DNA from: Pseudomonadota bacterium
Lineage (GTDB): Bacteria; Pseudomonadota; Gammaproteobacteria; Burkholderiales; JABEVD01
Direction: 5' to 3'
Assembly: GCA_021835845.1 (NCBI GenBank)
Contig: JAKBJU010000005.1
Coordinates: 36,505 to 100,504, forward strand
DNA length: 64,000 nt
A program made the position numbers and the translations under genes. Below, piece by piece: positions 4,011-61,958 of the stretch (its first letter is position 1; each line of letters opens with the position of its first letter). Below the pieces are notes generated by a model. The model worked only from the letters and a program-made list of their open reading frames with translations. It did not search any database and was not told the origin of the DNA.

Positions 4011-4910
4011 TCAAATCGGAAATGCATCGGAGACGTGCATATCCGATCCGACCACGAACCGGTCGCGACCTGCATCCTTGCCTTCGTAGAGCGCCATGTC
4101 GGCACGATGGATGGCATGCTTGCAGGATTCTCCCTCCTTCAGCAGGGCGATTCCCACCGTCACGGTCGGCCGGATCGTTTTGTCGCCGGGCAGCGTTACG
4201 GAAAGGGTGCGAATGGCATCGAGAATGCGCTGTCCGGCAACTGCAGCATCGTCCGGGGAAGACAATTCGCCGAGCACGATGAATTCCTCCCCGCCGTAGC
4301 GATAGATCTGGTCTTCTCCGCGCAGCGTCTTCTTGAGGCATTCCGCCAGTTCCTTCAAGACGGCATCTCCAGCAGAATGCCCGTGCTGGTCGTTGATCAT
4401 CTTGAACCTGTCGATATCGACGATCATCACCACGGGAAAGCTGCCCTGGCGGCGTGTACGCTGCTTGAGCAGATCGAAATTCTGTTCGGGTCGGTGGCGC
4501 AGGGGGAGTCCGGTGAGCGGATCGAGCTGGGAATCGCTTTGAACCAACAGGGTCTTGAACTCGGAAAGATACGAAATCAGCAGGGTCTGGTTAGTTTCGA
4601 AGGCGCTGAGATCGGACTCTTCGCAGGGGGAATTTTCCAGAACCTTGCTGCAAATGCTGCGGATGGCGTCGTGCATCGATTTGTGGGCGACTTCAAGCGC
4701 TATGCTTTTCTGCGCGTCGAGCGCATCGAACTGGGTGCGATTCTCGGTGAGCCAGTGCCCGAAGCGGCACAGGTGATGCGCTTCCGGTTTCATGATGTCG
4801 TTGCCCGGAGAAATGCGCAGCAGCGCGCAGCGCAATACCCGTCGCGTCCATTCCAGATGCGCCTGCATGGCGGCATCCAGTTCCGTTATGAAAAGTTGAT
4901 GGTTTTCCAC
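4011..4910 (-). CDS. Diguanylate cyclase with N-terminal CZB (chemoreceptor zinc-binding) domain, DgcZ-like
   Basis: CZB signature: EAHHLCRFGHWL..VAHKSMHDAI (H..C, HxxxH). GGDEF domain: DPLTGLP..IDRFKMINDQHGHSAGD..RGEDQIYRYGGEEF (I-site RxxD plus GGEEF). The ORF-track start at 5483 overlaps cheZ, so I chose the GTG at 4910, preceded by GGAGGG 9 nt upstream. The ATG at 4868 is an alternative. Confidence 0.8.
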   Translation of the reverse strand: MENHQLFITELDAAMQAHLEWTRRVLRCALLRISPGNDIMKPEAHHLCRFGHWLTENRTQFDALDAQKSIALEVAHKSMHDAIRSICSKVLENSPCEESDLSAFETNQTLLISYLSEFKTLLVQSDSQLDPLTGLPLRHRPEQNFDLLKQRTRRQGSFPVVMIVDIDRFKMINDQHGHSAGDAVLKELAECLKKTLRGEDQIYRYGGEEFIVLGELSSPDDAAVAGQRILDAIRTLSVTLPGDKTIRPTVTVGIALLKEGESCKHAIHRADMALYEGKDAGRDRFVVGSDMHVSDAFPI

Positions 4911-48148: not shown

Positions 48149-50185
48149 TCAGTAGCGCGAGTCGCTTGGCTTGCCGCCTTTGGGCCAATCATGGACCTTG
48201 GCCGGGAAATCGCGCCTTGGCATGTGGCTGAAATACTCGCCGACGTCCACCGCCTGCTGATCCGTCAGGCCGCCCTGGCCGATTGGAAAGGAAAAGGTGT
48301 TCGAGAGCGGCATGACATTCTTGGCAAATGCGGCTGCCGTGTAGGTCTTGGCAATCCCTGCGCCGATATTGTACGAGTCGTTGCCCCACAGCGGCGGGAA
48401 CAGATAGCTGCCATCGGCGCGCTTGATGCCTTCGCCCTGTTTTCCGTGGCAAACGGCGCAGGAATGATTATAGACTTCCTTGCCATTCGCCGCGTTCGGC
48501 ACGATGCTTTTGCTGATCTTGCCGACGCCGCGCCCGGGGATCTTCTGCTTCATCTGATAGCCATTTCGCATCCAGTCCATGTAGGCGATCATGGCGTTCA
48601 TTTCACTGGAGTTCTTGTCCAGCGGGTTGCCTGCCATCGAACGCAGCATGCAGCCATTGACGCGGTCCTTGAAGTCGATGATGCGTCCGGCACGGGGATT
48701 GTAGCTGGGAAACTGGGCCGCCACGCCGACATAAGGAGACGCAAGCGCGACTGTCCCGCCATTGATGTGGCAACTGTCGCAGTTCAGCCCATCGCCCACA
48801 TAGTTCGGCAACAATCGCTTGGTGTCGCGCATCAGGCGCATGCCGTAGATCAGCTGGCTTGCATTGGCGCTTTTCAGCATGTCTGCATAGCGCGGCGGAT
48901 TGAATTTCGGCGGCTCGGCCTTCTTCATTTCCAGCGCCTTCCTCATCTTGTGAATCTGCTCGGCAGTCACCGGGCTGCCCTTGTTGCCCCAATGGGTCCG
49001 GACAAAAGTCGCGATTTCCGCGACTTCCTGGTCATTCAGCACGGAATAGGAGGGCATAGCAAAGGCGTGCGGGGAGGAGGCGGTCAGAGGTGATGCAGAG
49101 CCAGTCAGCATGACGTGGATGAGGGATGCGGGATCCTTGGCCTGAATAGAGGTATTGCCGGCGAGCGGCGGGAAAAAGCGTGTCGCACCCTTGCCGTCCA
49201 TCTGATGGCAAGTTGCGCAGAATTGCACGTAACCGAGGCCGCCGCGGGTTGCATAGATCTCCTTGTTGGTTTGAGCGACATCCATCGACACGGCGTCCCG
49301 TCCCGGCACCTCATTCGGATTGGGAGAAAGCGAGTGGATGTACTCGCCGATCGCTGCGAGGTCCCCTTGGGTGAAATGCTGCGAGCTGAAATGGACCACT
49401 TCGGCCATGCCGCCGTAGGCTGTTCCGCGGCCATTTTCACCCGTCTTCAGGAACTGGGCGATTTCAGGACCGGTCCAGATACTGCGCAGATTGACGGCAC
49501 GCCAGTGCTCGACGTCCGCCCCGGCCAGAAACTCCTTGCCGTCGCTGCCCGAATCGCTCATGGCCTTTTCCTGGAAACCGATGCCGCGCGGGGTATGACA
49601 GGAGCCGCAGTGACCGAGCCCCTCTACAATATATGCGCCACGATTCCATTGCGGGGTGTGCGAGGCATCATAACGGAAGGGCTGGTTATCCAGGAACACC
49701 ATGTTCCAGCCTGCGAGCCCCAGGCGGATGTTGAAGGGAAACTTCATGTCATTGGGCTTGTTGGGCTGAGCAACCGGCTCGACGCCTTGCATGAGGTAGG
49801 CGTAAAGGGCTCTCATGTCGTTCTGGGCTATTTTGGCGAATGAAGGATAAGGCATGGCGGGATAAAGATTGTGGCCATCCTGTGCAACGCCGCGGCGCAT
49901 CGCGCGATCGAAATCCTCAAAAGTATAGGTGCCGATGCCATCTGTTTTGTCGGGCGTGATATTGGTGGAATGGATGACGCCGAACGGCGTTCTCATTTCC
50001 AGGCCCCCCGCCAGCGGCTTGCCGCCAGGCGCGGTATGGCAGGCGACGCAGTCGCCCAGATGAGCCAGATATTCGCCCTGCTTGACCAGATCATTGGGCG
50101 AAGGCGCTGCAGCCAGCGTGGAGCTTGCAACCATTGTTGCCAATGCGGCACCCAAAAATTTCAGCGAGGCTGTTCCCAACTTCAT
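48149..50185 (-). CDS. Five-haem periplasmic cytochrome c: ADH-type trihaem module + TsdA-like dihaem module
   Basis: Signal peptide. Haem sites CVACH, CGSCH, CATCH, CDSCH, CAVCH. The N-terminal part resembles dehydrogenase cytochrome subunits (STNITPD, LYPAMPYPSF, DMRALYAYL). The C-terminal part resembles TsdA/SoxA (FPPLWG.DSYNIGAG, QGGLTDQQA). Confidence 0.8.
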   Translation of the reverse strand: MKLGTASLKFLGAALATMVASSTLAAAPSPNDLVKQGEYLAHLGDCVACHTAPGGKPLAGGLEMRTPFGVIHSTNITPDKTDGIGTYTFEDFDRAMRRGVAQDGHNLYPAMPYPSFAKIAQNDMRALYAYLMQGVEPVAQPNKPNDMKFPFNIRLGLAGWNMVFLDNQPFRYDASHTPQWNRGAYIVEGLGHCGSCHTPRGIGFQEKAMSDSGSDGKEFLAGADVEHWRAVNLRSIWTGPEIAQFLKTGENGRGTAYGGMAEVVHFSSQHFTQGDLAAIGEYIHSLSPNPNEVPGRDAVSMDVAQTNKEIYATRGGLGYVQFCATCHQMDGKGATRFFPPLAGNTSIQAKDPASLIHVMLTGSASPLTASSPHAFAMPSYSVLNDQEVAEIATFVRTHWGNKGSPVTAEQIHKMRKALEMKKAEPPKFNPPRYADMLKSANASQLIYGMRLMRDTKRLLPNYVGDGLNCDSCHINGGTVALASPYVGVAAQFPSYNPRAGRIIDFKDRVNGCMLRSMAGNPLDKNSSEMNAMIAYMDWMRNGYQMKQKIPGRGVGKISKSIVPNAANGKEVYNHSCAVCHGKQGEGIKRADGSYLFPPLWGNDSYNIGAGIAKTYTAAAFAKNVMPLSNTFSFPIGQGGLTDQQAVDVGEYFSHMPRRDFPAKVHDWPKGGKPSDSRY

Positions 50186-53332: not shown

Positions 53333-56300
53333 TCAACTGGAGGCTGAGCCTCTTTCCAGAGACCAGCGAGTATCGTCGACTAGCCATTGCAGTAGCGCAT
53401 CGAAAGGCATCGGGTGCCCGATATAAAAACCCTGCCCCTGATCGCACTGATTCTCGACCAGAAATGAGAGCTGCTCTTCGGTTTCTATGCCTTCCGCAAT
53501 GACGGGGATCTTCAGGTTATGCCCCATGGCAATGATCGCGGTGATCAAGGCCGCATTCCCCGCGTCCCCAGTCACATCCCGGACGAAGGACTGGTCGATC
53601 TTGAGCTGGCTTATCGGGTAGCGTTTCAGGTAACTCAGGCTTGAATACCCGGTTCCGAAATCGTCGATGGCGATTCCCACCCCAAGCACATGCAGCGCCT
53701 CCAGAGCGGTGGCGACATCGCTTCTTTCATCCATCAGCACGCTTTCGGTGATCTCCAACTCCAGCTGAGCACTTTCCAGGCTAGCCTGCCCGAGAGCATT
53801 TCTAACCAGCATGACCAGATTGCCGTTCATGAATTGCCGCGGCGATATATTGACTGCGACCTTGAGCGCTACGCCCAGCAGCTTTTCCATCCTTTTTGCA
53901 TCACGACAGGCCGCCTCCAGCACCCATTGGCCGATCCGCAAGATGAGCCCTGTTTCTTCAGCCAGGGGAATGAAAGTGGAAGGCGGCACATGCTGATCGC
54001 TCCCGTTGTGCATGCGCAGCAAAGCCTCGACGCCCAGTACGGTCTTCGACTTCAAATCCACTTTCGGCTGATAGAACAAGGAAAAGCCGTCGCTTTCAAT
54101 GGCAAGATGAAGCTCCCTTTCAATGCTCAACCGGTTCGCCGCCCCCCTGTCCATTTCCCGCGAATACATCTTGTATCCGTTGCGCCCATGCTCCTTGACC
54201 CAGTACATCGCCACATCGGCACATCGCAGAAGCTCGTTCATGTCGTGGCCGTCGCGGGGACAAATGCTGAATCCGATGCTCGACGTAATGTGTACTTCCT
54301 GAATGCCCACATTGATCGGCTGCATCAATGCCTTGTGGATGCGCCCGGCGACGAGCGACACTCCAGTCGCGTCGGTTTCGCTCAGAAGCAGGACGAATTC
54401 GTCTCCTCCCATCCTGGCAAGCGTGTCGGTTGGCCGCAGGCAAGAAGAAACACGTTCCACGAACTCCTTGAGCAGCCTGTCTCCGATGTGATGACCCATC
54501 GAGTCGTTGATATGCTTGAAACGGTCGATGTCCATCATGCCCAATGCAAACGGGATATTGCTTCTGTGCTGCTGCTCGATCGCCACCATTATCCTGTCAT
54601 CAAGCAGGGCACGATTGGGCAGTCCGGTCAGTACATCGTGCAGGGCAATGTGCCTGATGTATTCCTTGGCCCGCATTTCCTCGGAAATGTCGTAGGCAAT
54701 GCCGATGAACCCCTGGATTACATCGTTCTCATCGCGCAATGCGCTCACCGAAAGATGCACGGGAAAGCGTGACCCGTCCTTGCGAATGTAGGTCCATTCA
54801 TGTTCTTCCTGGAAAGTTTTCCTGGCCTTTGCGACGAACACCTCGAAATCCGGCGGCACCGCACAGCCGAGCTCCTGGCTCAATGCCGCAGCGCGCTCCC
54901 TGATTTCATCGGCATCGTGAAATAGCAGCGGATTGGCTTTGCCGACCACCTCATTCGCGTCATACCAGAGCATGCGCTCTGCAGCCTTGTTGAAAGTGAG
55001 TATGGTGCCGTCGATGTCGGTGGAAATGATCGAGTAGGCTGCATTTTCAACGATCGCGGTGCGCAGGCGGTTCGAGTATTCGAGCTGCTGGAACAGGCGT
55101 TTTTCCTGCGTGATGTTCCTGAAGGTGACGGCAATACCACCGGGCATGGCCACCGCCTGGCGCTGATACCATTGGGTTGCGCCATCGCTGGCCAGGGAAA
55201 ATTCGTTGGTCAGCGGATTTCCCGTGAGAACCACTTTCCTGTATTGATCGAAAATGTCCCGCTGTTCCGGAAAGAGTTCCAGCAACGAATGTCCAACCAG
55301 GCCATCGGCTGGCAGTCTGGCCATTTCTGCCGCATGAGAATTGGCGTAGATGTAGCGGAAATCGACAATATCTCCGCCCTCGCTTTTCATGCTCTCACCA
55401 ATCACGAACCCATCCGGGCTGCTTTCCCTTGCCGCCTCGAAGCGGGCTCTCGCAATTCTTTCAGAAGCATGGGCATTTGCTAGATCCTGGGTCAGCGGGC
55501 TGACCCGAAGACGGGTGATCCATAGTCCCAGGGCGACCAGAATGGCGATCAAGGGAAGCGCAATCAAGAGTTCCCGTTTGACCGGGGCGTAAACTTCTGC
55601 GACATCCATTTTCAGAACCAGACCCAGCCCTGTATTACCCACGGGGCCGTAGGCTGACAGGACATTTCGTCCCCGGTAATCGATCGACGAGAAAATGCCG
55701 CTTTCGCCGGCGAGTGCATGCATCATCGGCAGCGGTTTCCCATTGAAAGTGTCCGGAATCACATACATGGAAACCTGTTCACGCTGCGGAAAGCATAGCA
55801 GTCTGCTCCGATCGAGGCGACTGCACATCGGCATGGTGCCGGTATTTCCCCAGCGGCTGGATTCGTCGAAAATCCTGTTCACATCGCGAAGTTCCTGTTC
55901 GAACACCATGAAACCTTCCGGGACGCCGCGAATCGCTTGTTTTACGGGGATCAGTACGCGCAGGTAGTAGCCATTATCCCAGGCGAGATAAACTTCTCCT
56001 TTCCGGTTAAGACGGGAGAAGGCGGTTTTATCCGAAACAAGACGCCCCACAACAACTCTGCTCCGGGTGCCATCCTCCAGGCCGATTCCGGAGAACCCGT
56101 ATGCAAGCAAGCTGGAAATCGGGATATCCCGCGCCATGGTCGATTTGGCTTTGCCAAACCAGAGAGATACCAAGGATTTGAGTTCGGGGTCCTGACTCGC
56201 TACTGTCGTGCGCTCTATGCGGTCGTCGAGCGCGGCTTCGATCTGCGAGCGTCTCGCACTCAAGCTTTGCTGCATATCCAGTGTCGCCTGATTCAGCATG

Positions 56301-57043
56301 GCTTTCTCTAGAAACCAGATCCCGGTCAGGCCGACGGCGACAGAGGTGAGGATGACCACGAAGACCGTGGTGTGGTAAATCTGCCTGGCTCTTTGTTCAG
56401 CTGCTATAGCGAAGGCGCTTTCTTCGCAGCGAATCGCAAGACACAGCAGGCCGGCACCTAGCAGGGTCATGCCGACGGCGGTGGGCAGGGACATCCATAT
56501 CAGTCCCGTCTCGATATACAGCGTTTCGAAAAGATACTGCAGCTTGAGCCAGTATCCGAAGATAACGGTCAGTCCCATGGCGAGCAGCAGGGCAGCCATT
56601 GTGCCGGCAAGCATACGCATCTTCCGGTCAGCAGCCCGCCAAACGGACAGCATCCCGATTCCGAATCCCAAGAATCCCGTCACCGTCTGCGGCGACATGT
56701 GGCCGACGCTCTGGAACTGCGCTCCCCAAACCAGCGCCAGAAAATCGATGCCGGCGAATTGCCGATGGGCAGCAATTTCAAGTCCCATTGCCCCGGCAAG
56801 CAGCATAGTCAGCCAGACAAGCATGCGCGCTGCTAAGGATTCCCGGCTTCCGAGCAGAGACAGCCCGCTCAAGACGAAACAGAGTGCCGTGCCAGGCACC
56901 ATGGGAATCCAGTCGGGGTCGATGCGCGTCAGCAGGGGAATGCCGAATGCCCAACCAGCGAGAACCGTGCTGCCGATCAGAAAGGTGAATATGCCGGCAA
57001 GGAAAACGATTTTATGGCGATCAGTTCGCTGGAAGGCTGGCAT
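53333..57043 (-). CDS. Multi-domain c-di-GMP protein: polytopic N-terminal sensor, extracytoplasmic domain, 2 PAS, GGDEF, EAL
   Basis: 1236 aa. About 8 TM helices, then a roughly 250-aa loop between two further TM helices. GGDEF: RPTDTLARMGGDEF. EAL: EALLRM..DDFGTGYSSLSYL..QGFY. Confidence 0.88.
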   Translation of the reverse strand: MPAFQRTDRHKIVFLAGIFTFLIGSTVLAGWAFGIPLLTRIDPDWIPMVPGTALCFVLSGLSLLGSRESLAARMLVWLTMLLAGAMGLEIAAHRQFAGIDFLALVWGAQFQSVGHMSPQTVTGFLGFGIGMLSVWRAADRKMRMLAGTMAALLLAMGLTVIFGYWLKLQYLFETLYIETGLIWMSLPTAVGMTLLGAGLLCLAIRCEESAFAIAAEQRARQIYHTTVFVVILTSVAVGLTGIWFLEKAMLNQATLDMQQSLSARRSQIEAALDDRIERTTVASQDPELKSLVSLWFGKAKSTMARDIPISSLLAYGFSGIGLEDGTRSRVVVGRLVSDKTAFSRLNRKGEVYLAWDNGYYLRVLIPVKQAIRGVPEGFMVFEQELRDVNRIFDESSRWGNTGTMPMCSRLDRSRLLCFPQREQVSMYVIPDTFNGKPLPMMHALAGESGIFSSIDYRGRNVLSAYGPVGNTGLGLVLKMDVAEVYAPVKRELLIALPLIAILVALGLWITRLRVSPLTQDLANAHASERIARARFEAARESSPDGFVIGESMKSEGGDIVDFRYIYANSHAAEMARLPADGLVGHSLLELFPEQRDIFDQYRKVVLTGNPLTNEFSLASDGATQWYQRQAVAMPGGIAVTFRNITQEKRLFQQLEYSNRLRTAIVENAAYSIISTDIDGTILTFNKAAERMLWYDANEVVGKANPLLFHDADEIRERAAALSQELGCAVPPDFEVFVAKARKTFQEEHEWTYIRKDGSRFPVHLSVSALRDENDVIQGFIGIAYDISEEMRAKEYIRHIALHDVLTGLPNRALLDDRIMVAIEQQHRSNIPFALGMMDIDRFKHINDSMGHHIGDRLLKEFVERVSSCLRPTDTLARMGGDEFVLLLSETDATGVSLVAGRIHKALMQPINVGIQEVHITSSIGFSICPRDGHDMNELLRCADVAMYWVKEHGRNGYKMYSREMDRGAANRLSIERELHLAIESDGFSLFYQPKVDLKSKTVLGVEALLRMHNGSDQHVPPSTFIPLAEETGLILRIGQWVLEAACRDAKRMEKLLGVALKVAVNISPRQFMNGNLVMLVRNALGQASLESAQLELEITESVLMDERSDVATALEALHVLGVGIAIDDFGTGYSSLSYLKRYPISQLKIDQSFVRDVTGDAGNAALITAIIAMGHNLKIPVIAEGIETEEQLSFLVENQCDQGQGFYIGHPMPFDALLQWLVDDTRWSLERGSASS

Positions 57044-57162
57044 AACAGGCTTTATCGTGCGCTATTACCCCAACAGTAGTCCAATCGCCCTGATTTGCCA
57101 GATGAAGGTGATTCGAGAATGGCTGGCAAGTCCAGCGCGGCGTTGTTCTTCCCGGCCGAAGC

Positions 57163-58188
57163 TCAGGTGCCGTATATTGTCGTCCTGTTTCTTCCCCGGG
57201 TTTTCGAGGCGTACAGCGCCTTGTCGGCTTGATTGAGCAATTGGTTGATGTCTCCATTCACGGTGAGACTGGCAACGCCGATGGAAACGGTGACAGCGCC
57301 TATGGATTCCTGCGAATCGATGCGGCGGATCTTTCCGATTTCTATACTCTTCCTGATATGCTCGGCAACTGCATATGCGCCGGCAGCTGGCGTCTCGGGT
57401 AGCAGTACGGCGAATTCCTCCCCGCCCAGCCTTGCCACGGAATCCTGCCCCTTGACCTTGGATTTCAGCATTTCCGCCACAGCCCTGATCACCTTGTCGC
57501 CAACCAGATGCCCATAGGTGTCGTTGATTTTTTTGAAATGGTCGATATCAATCATCAGGAGACATATTTCTTTGCCCGAAGAAGCGCTTTCGTCCAGAAT
57601 CCGCGAAGTGGCCTTTTCAAATCCGCGGCGGTTGAGAATTCCGGTCAAGGGGTCGATCATGGCTTCTCCCTTGGCAGACTCAAGCTCCCGATGAAGTTCT
57701 TCGACTTCCTGCTTGCTGTGCTCCAGCTGGTTCTGCAGGTTCAGCACGCTGCCGCGCATGTGTTCGGTATCCTCGACCATCTCTCCGATCAGTTTCCCCA
57801 GGGCGGATTCGTCGAGGTTCTGCTTGAGCTTTTCCCCATAGGATTGAAGATTGTCCCCGAACCCCATGGCGCGCCTGTCTGTTTCTTCGGTGAATCCCGC
57901 AAGCTTGCCCAGGATTTTCTGGAGATCCTGCCTGAGAAGCTTGTGGATATCCAGGTTGCATTCCGAAACATATTCCGCATAGAGTTTCTCGATTGCCTCA
58001 TCGTCGAGCCTGGTTTCCGAATCGAGATACTGCCCAAGCGCATCTGACAAGGCCGGATTGATCCCGGCAAGATGCTCGAACCACACTGCGTAGGCCCATG
58101 GGGTGAAGGAGGAGGGATGAGCGGCCATTTTCTGGATGACCAGCCTCAGAATTTCCCCGCTTGCATCGCGCCCCTGTTCGTATCTCAT
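57163..58188 (-). CDS. Diguanylate cyclase with an uncharacterised N-terminal domain and coiled coil
   Basis: Start MRYEQGRD at 58188. DPLTGILNRRG..IDHFKKINDTYGH..ARLGGEEF. No RxxD I-site (KGQD instead). Confidence 0.85.
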   Translation of the reverse strand: MRYEQGRDASGEILRLVIQKMAAHPSSFTPWAYAVWFEHLAGINPALSDALGQYLDSETRLDDEAIEKLYAEYVSECNLDIHKLLRQDLQKILGKLAGFTEETDRRAMGFGDNLQSYGEKLKQNLDESALGKLIGEMVEDTEHMRGSVLNLQNQLEHSKQEVEELHRELESAKGEAMIDPLTGILNRRGFEKATSRILDESASSGKEICLLMIDIDHFKKINDTYGHLVGDKVIRAVAEMLKSKVKGQDSVARLGGEEFAVLLPETPAAGAYAVAEHIRKSIEIGKIRRIDSQESIGAVTVSIGVASLTVNGDINQLLNQADKALYASKTRGRNRTTIYGT

Positions 58189-58309
58189 CGTTCGCAATCT
58201 TCTCTTTTGATTGAAAAGGCATTTTAGCAGAAGGTTTGGATCAAGTCTTTCCCTGAGACGCCACAAACGCGATGGGGTATCATTCAGCCCAATACTTGAG
58301 GAGAGAAGC

Positions 58310-59182
58310 ATGGATTCAAAACTGGAAGCAACATTTGGCGAAGTGGATTTTGTGGAAGGCCAGAACGGATTCGAACTGGTCGAGGTGAAAAATTCTGCAG
58401 GAAGCGCCACCATCGCCCTGCAGGGCGCGCAGCTGCTTTCCTGGACGCCGGCCGGCGAAAAACCGGTAGTCTGGCTCTCGAAAAATGCGAAATACATGCA
58501 GGGGAAATCGGTGAGGGGCGGCATTCCCATTTGCTGGCCCTGGTTCGGGCCGCATCCGGAAGAATCTTCCTATCCCGCTCACGGTTTCGCCAGGAACCTC
58601 GTCTGGGAAGTGGGTGGAACGAAAAGCCTGACGGATGCGACTCAGGTCGTTCTGCGCCTGGTTCCGAACGAGGCATCCTGGCCTTACCCTTCCGAGCTTG
58701 AATGCCGGATCAAGGTGGGCCAGACATTGGAAATGGAATTGATCACCCAGAATACAGGACTTGAGCCTTTTACACTGGGATGCGCCCTGCATACCTATTT
58801 CGAGGTGGGCGACGTAAGAAAAATCGAAATCCTGGGGCTGGAGGAAGCCGCCTATATCGACAAGGTGAATGGCGGTAAAAATCGGCAATCCGGCCCGGTG
58901 ACAGTGAATTCCGAGGTCGACAGGATCTATCTCGACACAGCGTCGGATTGTCTGATTCGTGACCCGATTTACAACCGCGTCATCCGGGTGGAAAAAGAAG
59001 GGAGCCGCTCGACCGTGGTGTGGAATCCCTGGGTGGACAAGGCTGACAAAATGGGTGACCTCGGAGATGACGGCTACCTGAACATGCTGTGCGTCGAGAG
59101 CTGCAATGCGGCAGATGATGTCGCCATCGTCCCTCCGGGAAAATCGCACCGGCTCTCGGCCAGGTATTCAGTCCTCGCATGA
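58310..59182 (+). CDS. D-hexose-6-phosphate mutarotase (aldose 1-epimerase family, YeaD-like)
   Basis: ATG at 58310 after GAGGAGAG. GGIPICWPWFGPH..YPAHGFARN. Confidence 0.8.
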   Translation: MDSKLEATFGEVDFVEGQNGFELVEVKNSAGSATIALQGAQLLSWTPAGEKPVVWLSKNAKYMQGKSVRGGIPICWPWFGPHPEESSYPAHGFARNLVWEVGGTKSLTDATQVVLRLVPNEASWPYPSELECRIKVGQTLEMELITQNTGLEPFTLGCALHTYFEVGDVRKIEILGLEEAAYIDKVNGGKNRQSGPVTVNSEVDRIYLDTASDCLIRDPIYNRVIRVEKEGSRSTVVWNPWVDKADKMGDLGDDGYLNMLCVESCNAADDVAIVPPGKSHRLSARYSVLA

Positions 59183-59288
59183 AACTTCAGGCACCATAAG
59201 CATGCACTGATGCACTCGAATGCACCGGAAATGACTCAACATTTCCGGGCCGCCATTGAATTCCCTATAAAATCAGCGTGGTAGTTTC

Positions 59289-59304
59289 TGGCACGGACAT
59301 TGCA
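59289..59304 (+). promoter_or_regulatory. Sigma-54 (-24/-12) promoter: CTGGCACGGACATTGCAA
   Basis: Exact match to YTGGCACGrNNNTTGCW. 43 nt upstream of the mini-ORF ATG at 59347. Confidence 0.7.
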
Positions 59305-59346
59305 AAACGATGATTGGCTTCAATCCATCATGAAAGGAGAACCATC

Positions 59347-59448
59347 ATGAACGATTACGAAATCATCGGCGAAATCGCTTTCGAGTTGTGCCTGATACTG
59401 TCCTTCATCTCGCTGGATGAAATTTTGTCCAGGAGAAAGGAAAAATAA
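59347..59448 (+). CDS. 33-codon mini-ORF downstream of the sigma-54 promoter
   Basis: AAAGGAGAA Shine-Dalgarno 7 nt upstream. MNDYEIIGEIAFELCLILSFISLDEILSRRKEK*. Below the ORF-track cutoff. Confidence 0.35.
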   Translation: MNDYEIIGEIAFELCLILSFISLDEILSRRKEK

Positions 59449-59538
59449 GCGTCGTGAAAATCCGGAATGCTCGGCTTCGATGATGCGCAAAAAAAAAGAG
59501 AGCCGAGCACTACTTCCGGAAGTGCATCGAGCATCTTT

Positions 59539-60117
59539 TCAGATCGCCCGCATCCCCTCGCGCTCGAGCATGCCGACCAGGGCGATGAGCGGCAGTCCGA
59601 TCAGCGCGTTGGGATCTTCTCCATGCATGGATGCGATCAGGGCAATGCCCAACCCTTCTGATTTTGCGCTCCCTGCGCAATGATAGGGCTCTTCGATTTT
59701 CAGATAGTTCTCGATCTGGGCATCGGAATAATTGCGGAATGAAACGAAGCAGGGGACGCTGGTCGACTGGATGCGTCCTTCCCGGCTGTTGTACAGGCAA
59801 AGCGCGCTGTGGAAGACGACCGTTTTGCCGCGCATCGCTTTCAGTTGCCTGAATGCATTGTCAAAGGTATACGGCTTGCCGACCTGCATGCCGTCCAGAA
59901 CCGCAACCTGATCGCATCCGATGACAAGCGCATCAGGATGCGCTCCTCCCACCTTTTTGGCTTTTTCCTCGGCAAGCCGCAATGCGGTGTTTTCAGGCGA
60001 TTCTCCGGGCCAGGGCGTTTCGTCGATCTCAGGAGATTCGACATCGAACGGAAGGCGCAGCCGCTCCAGCAGCATGCGGCGATAAACCGAGGAAGAGGCG
60101 AGTATCAGCTTGCTCAA
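59539..60117 (-). CDS. yceF: Maf-family nucleoside triphosphate pyrophosphatase
   Basis: [32 protein letters not shown]. Divergent from yceD-rpmF-plsX, as in E. coli. Confidence 0.88.
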
Positions 60118-60185
60118 TTGCGCTCCAGGGGAAACAAGGGGTTCATTTTGACAGAAAAAACAAAAAAATATACAATTGTCCGCTT

Positions 60186-60659
60186 ATGTCCGAGCTGACC
60201 GTCATCGATGGATTCGAATTTGCCAGAATGGGCAGGTCGCTCAGCGGGAAAATGGATGTCTCGCGCATGGACAGGCTGGCCGATTTATTGTATTCCAAAT
60301 CGGGGCAGGTTGACTATGCGCTGGCCGGCGGAGTAGATGCGGAAGGCGCTTTTCTGCTGCATCTTGCAATAGATGGGGTGCTCCATCTGAGGTGCCAACG
60401 CTGCCTGGGGGACATCGAATATCCGCTGGGGCTGAAGGCTGGCCTGAAGCTCGTGAAGGAAGAATCGGACCTCCCGGATATCGAGGAGGAAGATCCGGAT
60501 GTGGATAGCATTGTCGTCAAGGACAAGATGGAAATCTTGTCCCTGATCGAGGACGAAATCCTGCTCGACCTGCCTTTCTCTCCCAGGCATGCGACATGCG
60601 AGAGCGGCAGTGAAATCGTCAGGGAGTCCCCTTTTTCGATCCTGAAGGACAGGATCTAG
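60186..60659 (+). CDS. yceD: DUF177 protein YceD (23S rRNA accumulation protein)
   Basis: LHLRCQRCLGDIEYPL..EDEILLDLPFSPRH. Lies upstream of rpmF. Confidence 0.85.
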   Translation: MSELTVIDGFEFARMGRSLSGKMDVSRMDRLADLLYSKSGQVDYALAGGVDAEGAFLLHLAIDGVLHLRCQRCLGDIEYPLGLKAGLKLVKEESDLPDIEEEDPDVDSIVVKDKMEILSLIEDEILLDLPFSPRHATCESGSEIVRESPFSILKDRI

Positions 60660-60683
60660 ACAGCATTTTTATAGGAGTCGAAC

Positions 60684-60863
60684 ATGGCAGTTCAACAGAA
60701 CAAGAAATCCCCATCCAAGCGCGGCATGCACAGGGCGCATGATTTTCTGACCAACCCGCCGCTCGCAGTCGAGGCCTCCACAGGCGAAGTCCACCTGCGC
60801 CACCATGTCAGCCCGAATGGCTTTTATCGCGGCAAAAAAGTGGCGAAGGGCAAGAGCGAGTAA
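60684..60863 (+). CDS. rpmF: 50S ribosomal protein L32
   Basis: My translation, 59 aa and below the ORF-track cutoff: [39 protein letters not shown] Shine-Dalgarno. Confidence 0.93.
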
Positions 60864-60932
60864 GACAGCCTCGGGATGGCTTTCATCCTCTCCGGCGGTT
60901 CCGGTTTTTTGGCCTGAACTCAGCAAGGATCT

Positions 60933-61958
60933 ATGGATATCACGGTTGCTATCGATTGCATGGGCGGAGACCACGGCCCGGGCGTGACTGTTCCTGCCGC
61001 TTTGAACTTTCTCAAGGAGCATCCCGAAGCGGGTGTCGTCCTGGTCGGCGCCGCAGAGGCCATAGCGGCGGAATTGAAAGCCGGGAATACGGACGTTTCC
61101 TCGCGTCTGCGCATCCAGCCAGCGAGCGAGGTGGTCGAGATGCACGATCCTCCGGCTGCCGCGCTCAAGAACAAGAAGGACTCCTCGATGCGCGTCGCGG
61201 TCAATCTCGTGAAGAGCGGCGAAGCTCAGGCTTGCGTCAGCGCGGGCAATACCGGCGCGCTGATGGCGATTTCCCGCTTCGTTCTGAAGATGGTCCCCGG
61301 CGTGGAAAGGCCGGCCATCATCACCCTTTTGCCGACGCTCAAGGGACATACCTACATGCTCGACATGGGAGCAAACGTCGATTGCAGTGCGGAAAACCTG
61401 CTTCAGTTCGCAGTCATGGGATCGATCCTCGTCTCTTCCGTGGAGCAGATCGAAAAACCGCGGGTAGGCCTGCTCAACGTGGGTGAGGAGGAAATCAAGG
61501 GGAACGAAGTGGTGAAGCGCGCCGCCGATCTCCTGAAGTCCAGCGGACTCAATTTTGTCGGAAACGTCGAAGGGGACGACATCTTCAAGGGGACTGCGGA
61601 GGTCGTGGTTTGCGACGGCTTCGTCGGCAATGTCGCCCTGAAAACTTCCGAAGGACTCGCCCATATGCTGGCCACCTTTCTCAGGGAAGAATACGGCAAG
61701 AATCTCATCACCCGCATTGCCGGACTGATCTCCTTGCCCGTGATCAACGCCTTCAAACACCGCGTCGATCCTCGCCGCTACAACGGTGCCAGCCTTCTCG
61801 GACTGAAAGGGATCGTCATCAAGAGTCACGGCTCCGCAGATGCCTATTCCTTCCAGTGCGCTCTGGGGCGTGCACTGGAAGAGGCGAGAAGCGGGATGCT
61901 CAACGAACTCGGCATGCGCATGCAAATCATGAACCCGCAGCCTGCAGGAGAGATCTGA
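60933..61958 (+). CDS. plsX: Phosphate acyltransferase PlsX
   Basis: [33 protein letters not shown]. Confidence 0.95.

Follow-up and report, generated by a model that had tools for sequence, protein, structure and literature searches.

Organization of the locus

The window analyzed here is a stretch of 64,000 nucleotides from contig JAKBJU010000005.1, and all positions given below without a locus name are positions within it. The interval from 59185 to 59538 is flanked by an aldose-1-epimerase-family gene on one side and by a convergent Maf-family gene on the other and contains a 33-codon open reading frame (ORF), referred to here as the mini-ORF, which is preceded by a sequence matching the sigma-54 promoter consensus. 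This small gene and the sigma-54 unit that it appears to form are the subject of this report. The following features were identified in and around the interval.

Ending at 59182, + strand: aldose-1-epimerase-family gene (Pfam, E = 9.4e-47)
59190 to 59206, + strand: candidate distal activator box GGCACC-ataag-CATGCA, at -99 from the T of TGGCAC and within a conserved island
59203 to 59237, + strand: three same-strand TGCAC repeats, including the candidate proximal box TGCACC-ggaaa-TGACTC (59221 to 59237), kept in 10 close relatives
59271 to 59283, + strand: IHF-like box AATCAGCGTGGTA (pattern WATCAR-N4-nTn), immediately upstream of the -24 element
59288 to 59305, + strand: putative sigma-54 -24/-12 element CTGGCACGGACATTGCAA, the single full consensus match, kept in all related loci
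59316 to 59346, + strand: 5' untranslated region (5' UTR) of ~31 nucleotides predicted from the sequence, with the Shine-Dalgarno sequence AAAGGAG at 59333 to 59339 (6 of 31 columns vary among 10 close relatives)
59347 to 59448, + strand: small-protein gene of 33 codons plus stop, MNDYEIIGEIAFELCLILSFISLDEILSRRKEK, as indicated by substitution pattern, gene calls, distant homologues and a helix model
59461 to 59520, no strand assigned: conserved hairpin between the convergent mini-ORF and maf, from the fold and a 10-sequence alignment
59539 to 60117, - strand: convergent maf (yceF-like) gene, the boundary of the transcript (Pfam Maf, E = 2.6e-49)

A conserved sigma-54 promoter element precedes the mini-ORF

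Both strands of the window (2 x 64 kb) were searched with the pattern YTGGCACGRNNNTTGCW, corresponding to the consensus YTGGCACGrNNNTTGCW with the -24 GG and -12 GC at fixed spacing. The sequence CTGGCACGGACATTGCA at 59288 to 59304 on the + strand was the sole full match. Dinucleotide shuffles gave 0.02 matches on average, with at least one match in 2 of 100 shuffles, in agreement with a preliminary description of this DNA in which the chance expectation of such a match was estimated to be well below one.

Ten distinct versions of the locus, collected by scanning genome bins with the Maf protein, by exact-protein look-ups and by a metagenome scan, were then aligned. The Maf-protein scan provided two loci with the gene order of the window, L001 (91% Maf identity) and L002 (90%); beyond approximately 90% identity the neighbor of maf changes, and maf synteny yielded these two informative loci only. 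The metagenome scan added two more close variants. In the alignment, 5 of 21 columns of the -24/-12 element were variable and none of these was a consensus position, compared to 38 of 53 variable columns in the spacer upstream of the element (59233 to 59285). The element was invariant in 9 of the 10 close relatives, the remaining one, L031, having one silent G to A change. Variant elements at an equal distance from the ORF were found in six further lineages, and in every family member the element lies approximately 40 to 45 nucleotides upstream of the ATG. The preliminary description had made its proposal depend on conservation of promoter and ORF, and the promoter was present in every related locus found while the frame was open in seven lineages. 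The promoter elements were as follows.

TGGCACGGACATTGCA/T: window clade, L040, L050 and L054
TGGCATGGAGATTGCT: L034 and L045
TGGCATGGAGGTTGCT: L041
TGGCATGATGGTTGCT: L051

The upstream neighbor of the promoter in several of these lineages is a divergently transcribed N-type ATPase operon, which rules out expression of the ORF by read-through there. These results support the identification of the -24/-12 element as a genuine sigma-54 promoter. From the usual distance to the -12 GC, transcription would start near 59314 to 59316, and it would be expected to depend on RpoN.

The sequence of the 5' UTR diverges between lineages. A shared 5' UTR structure was considered and rejected: by eye, some small stem could be drawn in each lineage and a common architecture was absent. 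The direct repeat CCATCATGAA is present twice between 59326 and 59352, spanning the 5' UTR and the start region, and its first copy creates a six-codon upstream ORF, MKGEPS, whose TGA overlaps the main ATG. No Shine-Dalgarno sequence precedes the upstream ATG of MKGEPS. In L002 and L031, a 2-nucleotide deletion places this ATG in frame with the main ORF.

The mini-ORF encodes a member of a new small-protein family

The Shine-Dalgarno sequence lies 7 nucleotides before the ATG of the mini-ORF, and the 33-codon translation proposed earlier was confirmed. When the window was compared to L002, the neighboring epimerase and maf genes differed at 18 to 22% of third positions and at 6 to 7% of first and second positions. 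For the mini-ORF, the same comparison yielded five synonymous codon differences and no amino acid changes in 27 codons; within codons 1 to 26, there were four differences at third positions and none at first or second positions. Of the eight variable columns that the 10-sequence alignment contained in codons 1 to 26, six were third positions; the other two were first positions, and one of these reflected a synonymous CTG/TTG exchange. A similar pattern was found over larger distances. Across eight compared sequences from seven lineages, with 64 to 77% nucleotide identity across lineages, the frame was open in all, the other two frames carried stops in most, and amino acid changes were conservative.

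The ORF has already been called as a gene, without a name, in public assemblies, and it is single copy, syntenic and chromosomal. A profile search of 1.84 billion representative proteins retrieved only short relatives, 34 to 72 residues long as called, with E values of approximately 1e-4 or better. This search provided further family members of 34 to 45 residues, and two more were found as neighbors of the EAL-domain gene described below. A 44-residue query, extended to an upstream TTG, retrieved only near-identical sequences. Residues M1, E5, G8, E9, I10, C15, F20 and E25 were invariant in eight members; the most divergent member, that of L051 (MDTWIGIGAVALEFFVIFSFIVVEEIMAGKK), does not have E5, E9 or C15. 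Sequence searches of Pfam, NCBIfam and PDB with the peptide or its profile gave no family match, and a full-text literature search on sigma-54 and a small protein together with NtrC or EAL returned nothing pertinent. Judged by these comparisons, the mini-ORF is a real protein gene whose product is a protein and not a small RNA (sRNA), and it defines a new, narrowly distributed small-protein family under what appears to be ordinary sigma-54 control.

The preliminary description had allowed for either a 33-codon ORF or a short RNA; the first of these is borne out by the coding signature and the second is not. A non-coding or dual-function sRNA, in which the ORF would be incidental or secondary, would fit the stand-alone sigma-54 promoter, the transcript of approximately 200 nucleotides and the terminal hairpin, and the RNA was found to fold better than shuffled sequences (z = -3.1). 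It would also fit the conservation at the start of the gene, where only 1 of 33 columns in codons 1 to 11 was variable among the 10 sequences. The first 10 codons (59347 to 59379) and most of the 5' UTR were invariant in the close relatives, even at synonymous sites; variation-free windows of 11 codons were found in 3 of 445 cases in the neighboring genes. Against such an RNA stand the substitutions described above and the conservation of both the Shine-Dalgarno sequence and the ATG while the 5' UTR diverges. A search of 58000 to 61000 against Rfam 15 at permissive E values gave only three chance-level matches (E = 3.5 to 8.3), none of them on the transcript. In addition, codons that are frozen in close relatives vary synonymously between lineages (GGC/GGA/GGT, ATC/ATT) with the peptide kept, which argues against a primary function at the RNA level. 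Since distant lineages vary at those codons, the frozen first codons may instead reflect constraints on translation initiation, selection on which would be equally expected to produce invariance close to the start codon. We consider it unlikely that the transcript acts mainly as an RNA.

Same-strand GCAC boxes form a candidate enhancer

Four GCAC/TGCAC motifs had been noted upstream of the promoter. All were present, with GCAC at 59191 and TGCAC starting at 59203, 59211 and 59221 on the + strand, and they make up the only cluster in the window of at least three TGCAC within 40 bp on one strand. Clusters of this kind occurred somewhere in 12 of 300 (4%) Markov-1 simulated windows. The island that contains the motifs (59189 to 59232) was variable at 10 of 44 columns, compared to 38 of 53 in the adjacent spacer. 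Within the window, the proximal box lies 31 bp downstream of the distal box, and the distal box begins with TGCACC in the relatives L002, L022, L031, L032 and L050. An equivalent distal box, TGCACC-N5-(G/C)A(G/T)GCA, was found at -88 to -108 from the T of TGGCA in all nine lineages (9/9), each of which also has a second same-strand GCAC box 20, 21, 30 or 31 bp further downstream; both boxes fall within -58 to -108 in every case. At these spacings, the two boxes would lie on the same face of the helix. The conserved island and the two-box layout in nine lineages strengthen the earlier suggestion that the cluster could be an enhancer, and we treat it as a candidate enhancer with putative binding.

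One arrangement within the cluster had been likened to an NtrC-type half-site pair. The left halves fit an NtrC dyad well (GGCACC and TGCACC), and the right halves fit it weakly (CATGCA and TGACTC); in other lineages, the distal right half is GAGGCA, GAAGCA or CAGGCA. The palindrome was rejected as stand-alone evidence, as matches with two mismatches were at chance level (34 versus 31 expected). The NtrC-like reading of the boxes gains weight only from their conservation, their position and a perfect palindrome at the other sigma-54-type promoter of the window, and an activator of this type is the presumed one.

This second promoter, TGGCACGCTAGTTGCT at 1535 to 1550 on the - strand, is the only other TGGCAC-N5-TTGCW sequence in the window. 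Approximately 107 bp upstream of its inferred start lies TGCACGATAATGGTGCA (1624 to 1640), the only perfect TGCAC-N7-GTGCA palindrome in the window. The gene behind it, which runs from 1467 off the left end of the window, encodes a PP2C phosphatase domain fused to a Ser/Thr protein kinase. The occurrence of the perfect palindrome at this promoter indicates that the organism pairs sigma-54 promoters with NtrC-type sites, and in the enhancer of the mini-ORF this pairing seems to recur in a weaker form with several boxes.

Between the boxes and the promoter, an AATCA(A/G) sequence resembling the IHF core was found at -17 or -18 in six of nine lineages, and that of L041, TATCAATATGTTG, is a full match to WATCAANNNNTTR. 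IHF may thus bind at 59271 to 59283 in the window. The N-type ATPase operon (atpDC-gene1-BEFA) lies divergently upstream of the small ORF in L034, L041, L051 and L054 and is likewise present in L040 and L003. Its start codon is only approximately 20 nucleotides from the distal GCAC box, so that its promoter must overlap the enhancer region.

A conserved hairpin separates the mini-ORF from maf

The long-range complementarity reported earlier in the 3' region was found to be part of a single hairpin, in which TCCGGAA (59461 to 59467) pairs with TTCCGGA (59514 to 59520) and GCTCGGCT (59469 to 59476) pairs with AGCCGAGC (59501 to 59508). All 10 close relatives retain the hairpin, and 92% of its cells in the alignment were paired. 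One compensatory pair, G-C to A-U, was observed, and covariation did not exceed that of shuffles, there being little variation. On the - strand, a run of UUUU (59457 to 59460), or UUUUU, directly follows the hairpin. On the + strand, an outer stem brings UCUUUU (59534 to 59539) close to the hairpin base, and the U run comes only after this outer stem. A scan with a simple terminator consensus, which misses loops of more than 8 nucleotides, reported no terminator in the region. On the - strand, the hairpin has the form of a classical terminator for maf, and it probably serves as a two-way terminator for both convergent transcripts. With maf convergent and the conserved hairpin in between, the transcript can hold only the mini-ORF, as had been proposed.

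In the L002/L031 lineage, the stop codon of the small ORF is changed to CAG and the ORF extends to 49 codons through the hairpin (...TRKKEKQCREKSGRFDFDGWST), over a region orthologous to 59446 to 59500 of the window. This loss of the stop and extension of the ORF indicate that the C-terminal tail after the basic residues is unconstrained.

In relatives the small gene is followed by an EAL-domain gene

The relatives of the mini-ORF differ in what lies downstream. An EAL-domain gene in the same orientation comes directly after the small ORF in five lineages (L034 to L039, L041 to L044, L045 to L049, L051 and L054). As called, it lies 23 to 54 nucleotides away or, in L045 to L049, overlaps the ORF by 4 nucleotides. 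The downstream protein, of 415 to 422 residues, is a predicted cyclic di-GMP (c-di-GMP) phosphodiesterase whose EAL domain spans residues 36 to 257 (E = 2.9e-42). Its C-terminal ~165 residues (258 to 422 in L034) gave no Pfam family match and may form a sensor domain; this region ends in the conserved ...RPYLSIASGNMCVTLS...CGDILWDD, which is also present in L003. Bins labelled Nitrosomonadales, Gallionellaceae, Sulfuricella and Sulfuriferula frequently contain relatives of the EAL protein, which also gives an approximate placement for the organism of the window.

Several loci bear on the history of this pair. L045 and L046 match the gene order of the window exactly (epimerase, small ORF, convergent maf), except that the EAL gene is inserted after the small ORF and before maf. 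In L054, the small protein is nearly identical to that of the window (MSDYEIIGEIAFEFCLILSFIVLEEFL...) and the EAL gene is retained. L040 and L050 carry the promoter and the small ORF without the EAL gene, in other downstream contexts, and in Gallionellales bins the EAL gene is found in an unrelated operon without the sigma-54 promoter or the small ORF. The simplest history compatible with these arrangements is an ancestral sigma-54 operon of small protein and EAL protein from which the EAL gene was lost recently in the window clade. This refines the preliminary description, as the gene would be the surviving first gene of a small-protein/EAL operon and not a stand-alone oddity. In L003 (6527 to 6720, - strand), the same two-box enhancer and the sigma-54-like element TGGAACGAACCTTGCT drive the EAL gene directly, without the small ORF; the small gene was thus either gained within the leader of an EAL operon or removed from it.

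An alternative raised by these arrangements is that the ORF has only the role of an upstream ORF or leader peptide, tuning the EAL gene, and that it persists in the window as a functionless relic of the EAL deletion. Its position directly upstream of the EAL gene in five lineages would be explained in this way, the 4-nucleotide stop/start overlap in L045 and L046 suggests translational coupling, and the L003 arrangement implies that the ORF is dispensable for EAL expression. Against it, the peptide itself is conserved, down to the residues invariant in eight members, and the ORF is intact in three contexts that have no EAL gene (the window clade, L050 and L040). In the comparison of the window with L002, which is made inside this EAL-less clade, five synonymous and no nonsynonymous codon differences reflect a constraint stronger than that on the neighboring genes. 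Purifying selection on the small gene after loss of the EAL gene argues that it is not merely a leader for that gene, and we rate the leader alternative as slightly less likely again than an RNA function.

Genes related to c-di-GMP are frequent around the mini-ORF. Two of them, on the - strand immediately before the epimerase gene (53333 to 58530), encode a 1,236-residue PAS-GGDEF-EAL protein (53333 to 57043) and a GGDEF protein (57163 to 58530), the latter a 455-residue ORF that is 341 residues long as called in public assemblies, and GGDEF genes were also found near the L045 and L050 loci. Further upstream, at 48149 to 50185 on the - strand, the window encodes a multihaem cytochrome c of approximately 678 residues with SoxA/TsdA and MtrC-like domains. 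A protein with the identical domain set is encoded at 4521 to 6560 of L051, where its gene comes immediately after the EAL gene, a hint that synteny has been rearranged.

The predicted product is a single hydrophobic helix

AlphaFold predicted one helix over residues 3 to 32 of the small protein, with a mean predicted local distance difference test score of 94.6. The helix is hydrophobic, with Kyte-Doolittle 19-residue means of 1.85 to 2.5 across members (the usual threshold is 1.6), and has three acidic residues on its N-terminal face. A basic C-terminal tail was found in all members. From this model, the 33-residue protein would most likely reside in or on the membrane or be docked on a partner protein, and membrane insertion is plausible.

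A peptide of this size, with a single hydrophobic helix and a basic tail, is reminiscent of the TisB/Hok class, and sigma-54 promoters have very low basal activity. Both points would suit a type I toxin, or a related peptide that damages membranes, silenced by the tight off-state of its promoter. Other features of the locus speak against a toxin. No sigma-70-like promoter was found antisense to the ORF, 58800 to 60400 holding only two unrelated sites, and the predicted 5' UTR is short (~31 nucleotides) with a strong, exposed ribosome-binding site in place of the long folded leader of type I toxins. Moreover, the gene is cotranscribed with a signaling enzyme in relatives and is a single-copy, syntenic chromosomal gene that is neither mobile nor multicopy. 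We regard a toxin as improbable.

Discussion

Taken together, the above-described results make it likely that the interval holds a self-contained sigma-54 unit for a 33-residue helical protein with an ancestral EAL partner. In the proposed mechanism, the same-face GCAC boxes between 59190 and 59237 would be occupied by an enhancer-binding protein, probably of the NtrC type, whose gene is elsewhere in the genome; IHF at the AATCA(G/A) box (59271 to 59283) may bend the DNA, and the activator would open the RpoN holoenzyme bound at 59288 to 59305. The transcript would begin near 59315 and terminate at the hairpin (59461 to 59520) that is shared with maf. The resulting mRNA, of approximately 200 to 225 nucleotides, would have the 33-residue protein as its only product. 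As only 0 to 35 nucleotides separate the small gene from the EAL gene in related bacteria, this protein would most likely be an accessory or modulator of the EAL enzyme or its signaling pathway. Given that the small gene is under strong purifying selection without the EAL gene, the protein must still have an independent function.

A number of observations weigh against this proposal. Some concern the activator: the sequence GGCACCATAAGCATGCA at 59190 to 59206, with two mismatches to TGCAC-N7-GTGCA, belongs to a class of matches found at chance level, the GCAC boxes are all in the same orientation and do not form clean dyads, and neither an rpoN gene nor the GAFTGA or Walker-type signatures of an enhancer-binding protein were found in the window, the latter in all six frames and as the preliminary description had stated for such proteins. 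Others concern the EAL partner. The window clade has no EAL gene or remnant nearby, as searched with blastn-short over 59424 to 59560 and with tblastn over the whole window, in which the sole match was the unrelated EAL domain of the 1,236-residue PAS-GGDEF-EAL protein (24% identity); the link to c-di-GMP would thus be drawn only from gene order in relatives. For membrane insertion, a simple Hessa sum was unfavorable in most members (+3.3 to +4.7 kcal/mol) because of the two or three Glu residues in the helix, although that of L051 has a transmembrane-grade segment (-0.25). Finally, the organism is known from metagenome bins only, and the unit has been read from sequence.

In another alternative, the sigma-54 motif would have arisen by chance or be nonfunctional, and any expression of the ORF would come from transcripts that continue past the end of the epimerase gene, which is on the same strand and is separated from the ORF by no terminator-like site that we found. 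This alternative is very improbable in view of the 0.02 chance matches expected and the retention of the motif in every lineage, including those with the divergent N-type ATPase operon upstream.

A more specific version of the proposed unit is offered here as speculation, and we would sooner doubt than assume it. The 33-residue helix would be an undescribed c-di-GMP regulator that is made only when a sigma-54 activator fires, perhaps NtrC under nitrogen limitation. It would bind the EAL protein or another c-di-GMP enzyme and switch or relocate its activity, and its importance in trans would have been sufficient for it to outlast the loss of its cognate EAL gene, together with the promoter dedicated to it.

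The regulatory machinery of this locus is ordinary; what draws attention is the gene that it drives and the fact that this gene has been orphaned. Known examples of a sigma-54 promoter devoted to one small protein are few, and small proteins that modulate c-di-GMP enzymes are largely unexplored. The related loci provide a natural experiment in which one promoter/enhancer module carries three cargoes (the EAL protein alone, the small protein with the EAL protein, and the small protein alone), and the existence of these three in related bacteria makes the function of the small protein separable from that of its neighbor. The locus is also a test case for annotation, as a 33-codon gene without a database family could be recovered from its promoter and substitution pattern alone. 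The organisms are uncultured Nitrosomonadales-like betaproteobacteria, so that a heterologous host would be needed for further work.

Known systems resemble this unit in different parts. At the E. coli glnAp2 promoter, NtrC sites of the form TGCACC-N5-GGTGCA lie approximately 32 bp apart upstream of a TGGCAC-N5-TTGCA promoter. The window shares with promoters of this type the consensus -24/-12 element, two boxes that start with TGCACC, are separated by approximately three turns of the helix and lie roughly 80 to 125 bp before the inferred start (-80 to -125) and, at its other sigma-54 promoter, a perfect NtrC-type site. It differs from them in that the right half-sites are degenerate, the boxes all point in one direction and lie closer to the promoter, and the cargo is a 33-residue protein and not a nitrogen-assimilation enzyme. 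Stand-alone sigma-54-dependent sRNA genes, such as those for GlmY, the Vibrio Qrr RNAs and the Pseudomonas CrcZ and NrsZ, resemble the window in that they are intergenic, have a sigma-54 promoter of their own that is preceded by an enhancer, and give a short monocistronic transcript ending in a hairpin, whereas the transcript in the window encodes a protein under purifying selection and has no Rfam match. The EAL phosphodiesterases of approximately 425 residues from Nitrosomonadales, Gallionellaceae and Sulfuricella bins, absent at the window locus, are encoded directly after the small ORF in relatives.

As for the product, single-helix regulatory proteins of approximately 30 to 50 residues include MgtS, AcrZ and MgrB of E. 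coli, and nitrogen-regulated small proteins include the cyanobacterial IF7 and IF17 and sP26 of Methanosarcina. The protein described here has no sequence similarity to the described families, and a cytoplasmic EAL phosphodiesterase would be its partner, should it have one. It resembles the members of this group in being a one-helix peptide of approximately 30 residues whose gene is adjacent to, or cotranscribed with, that of a larger protein that it may modulate and, presumably, in being induced by a dedicated stress or nutrient regulator.

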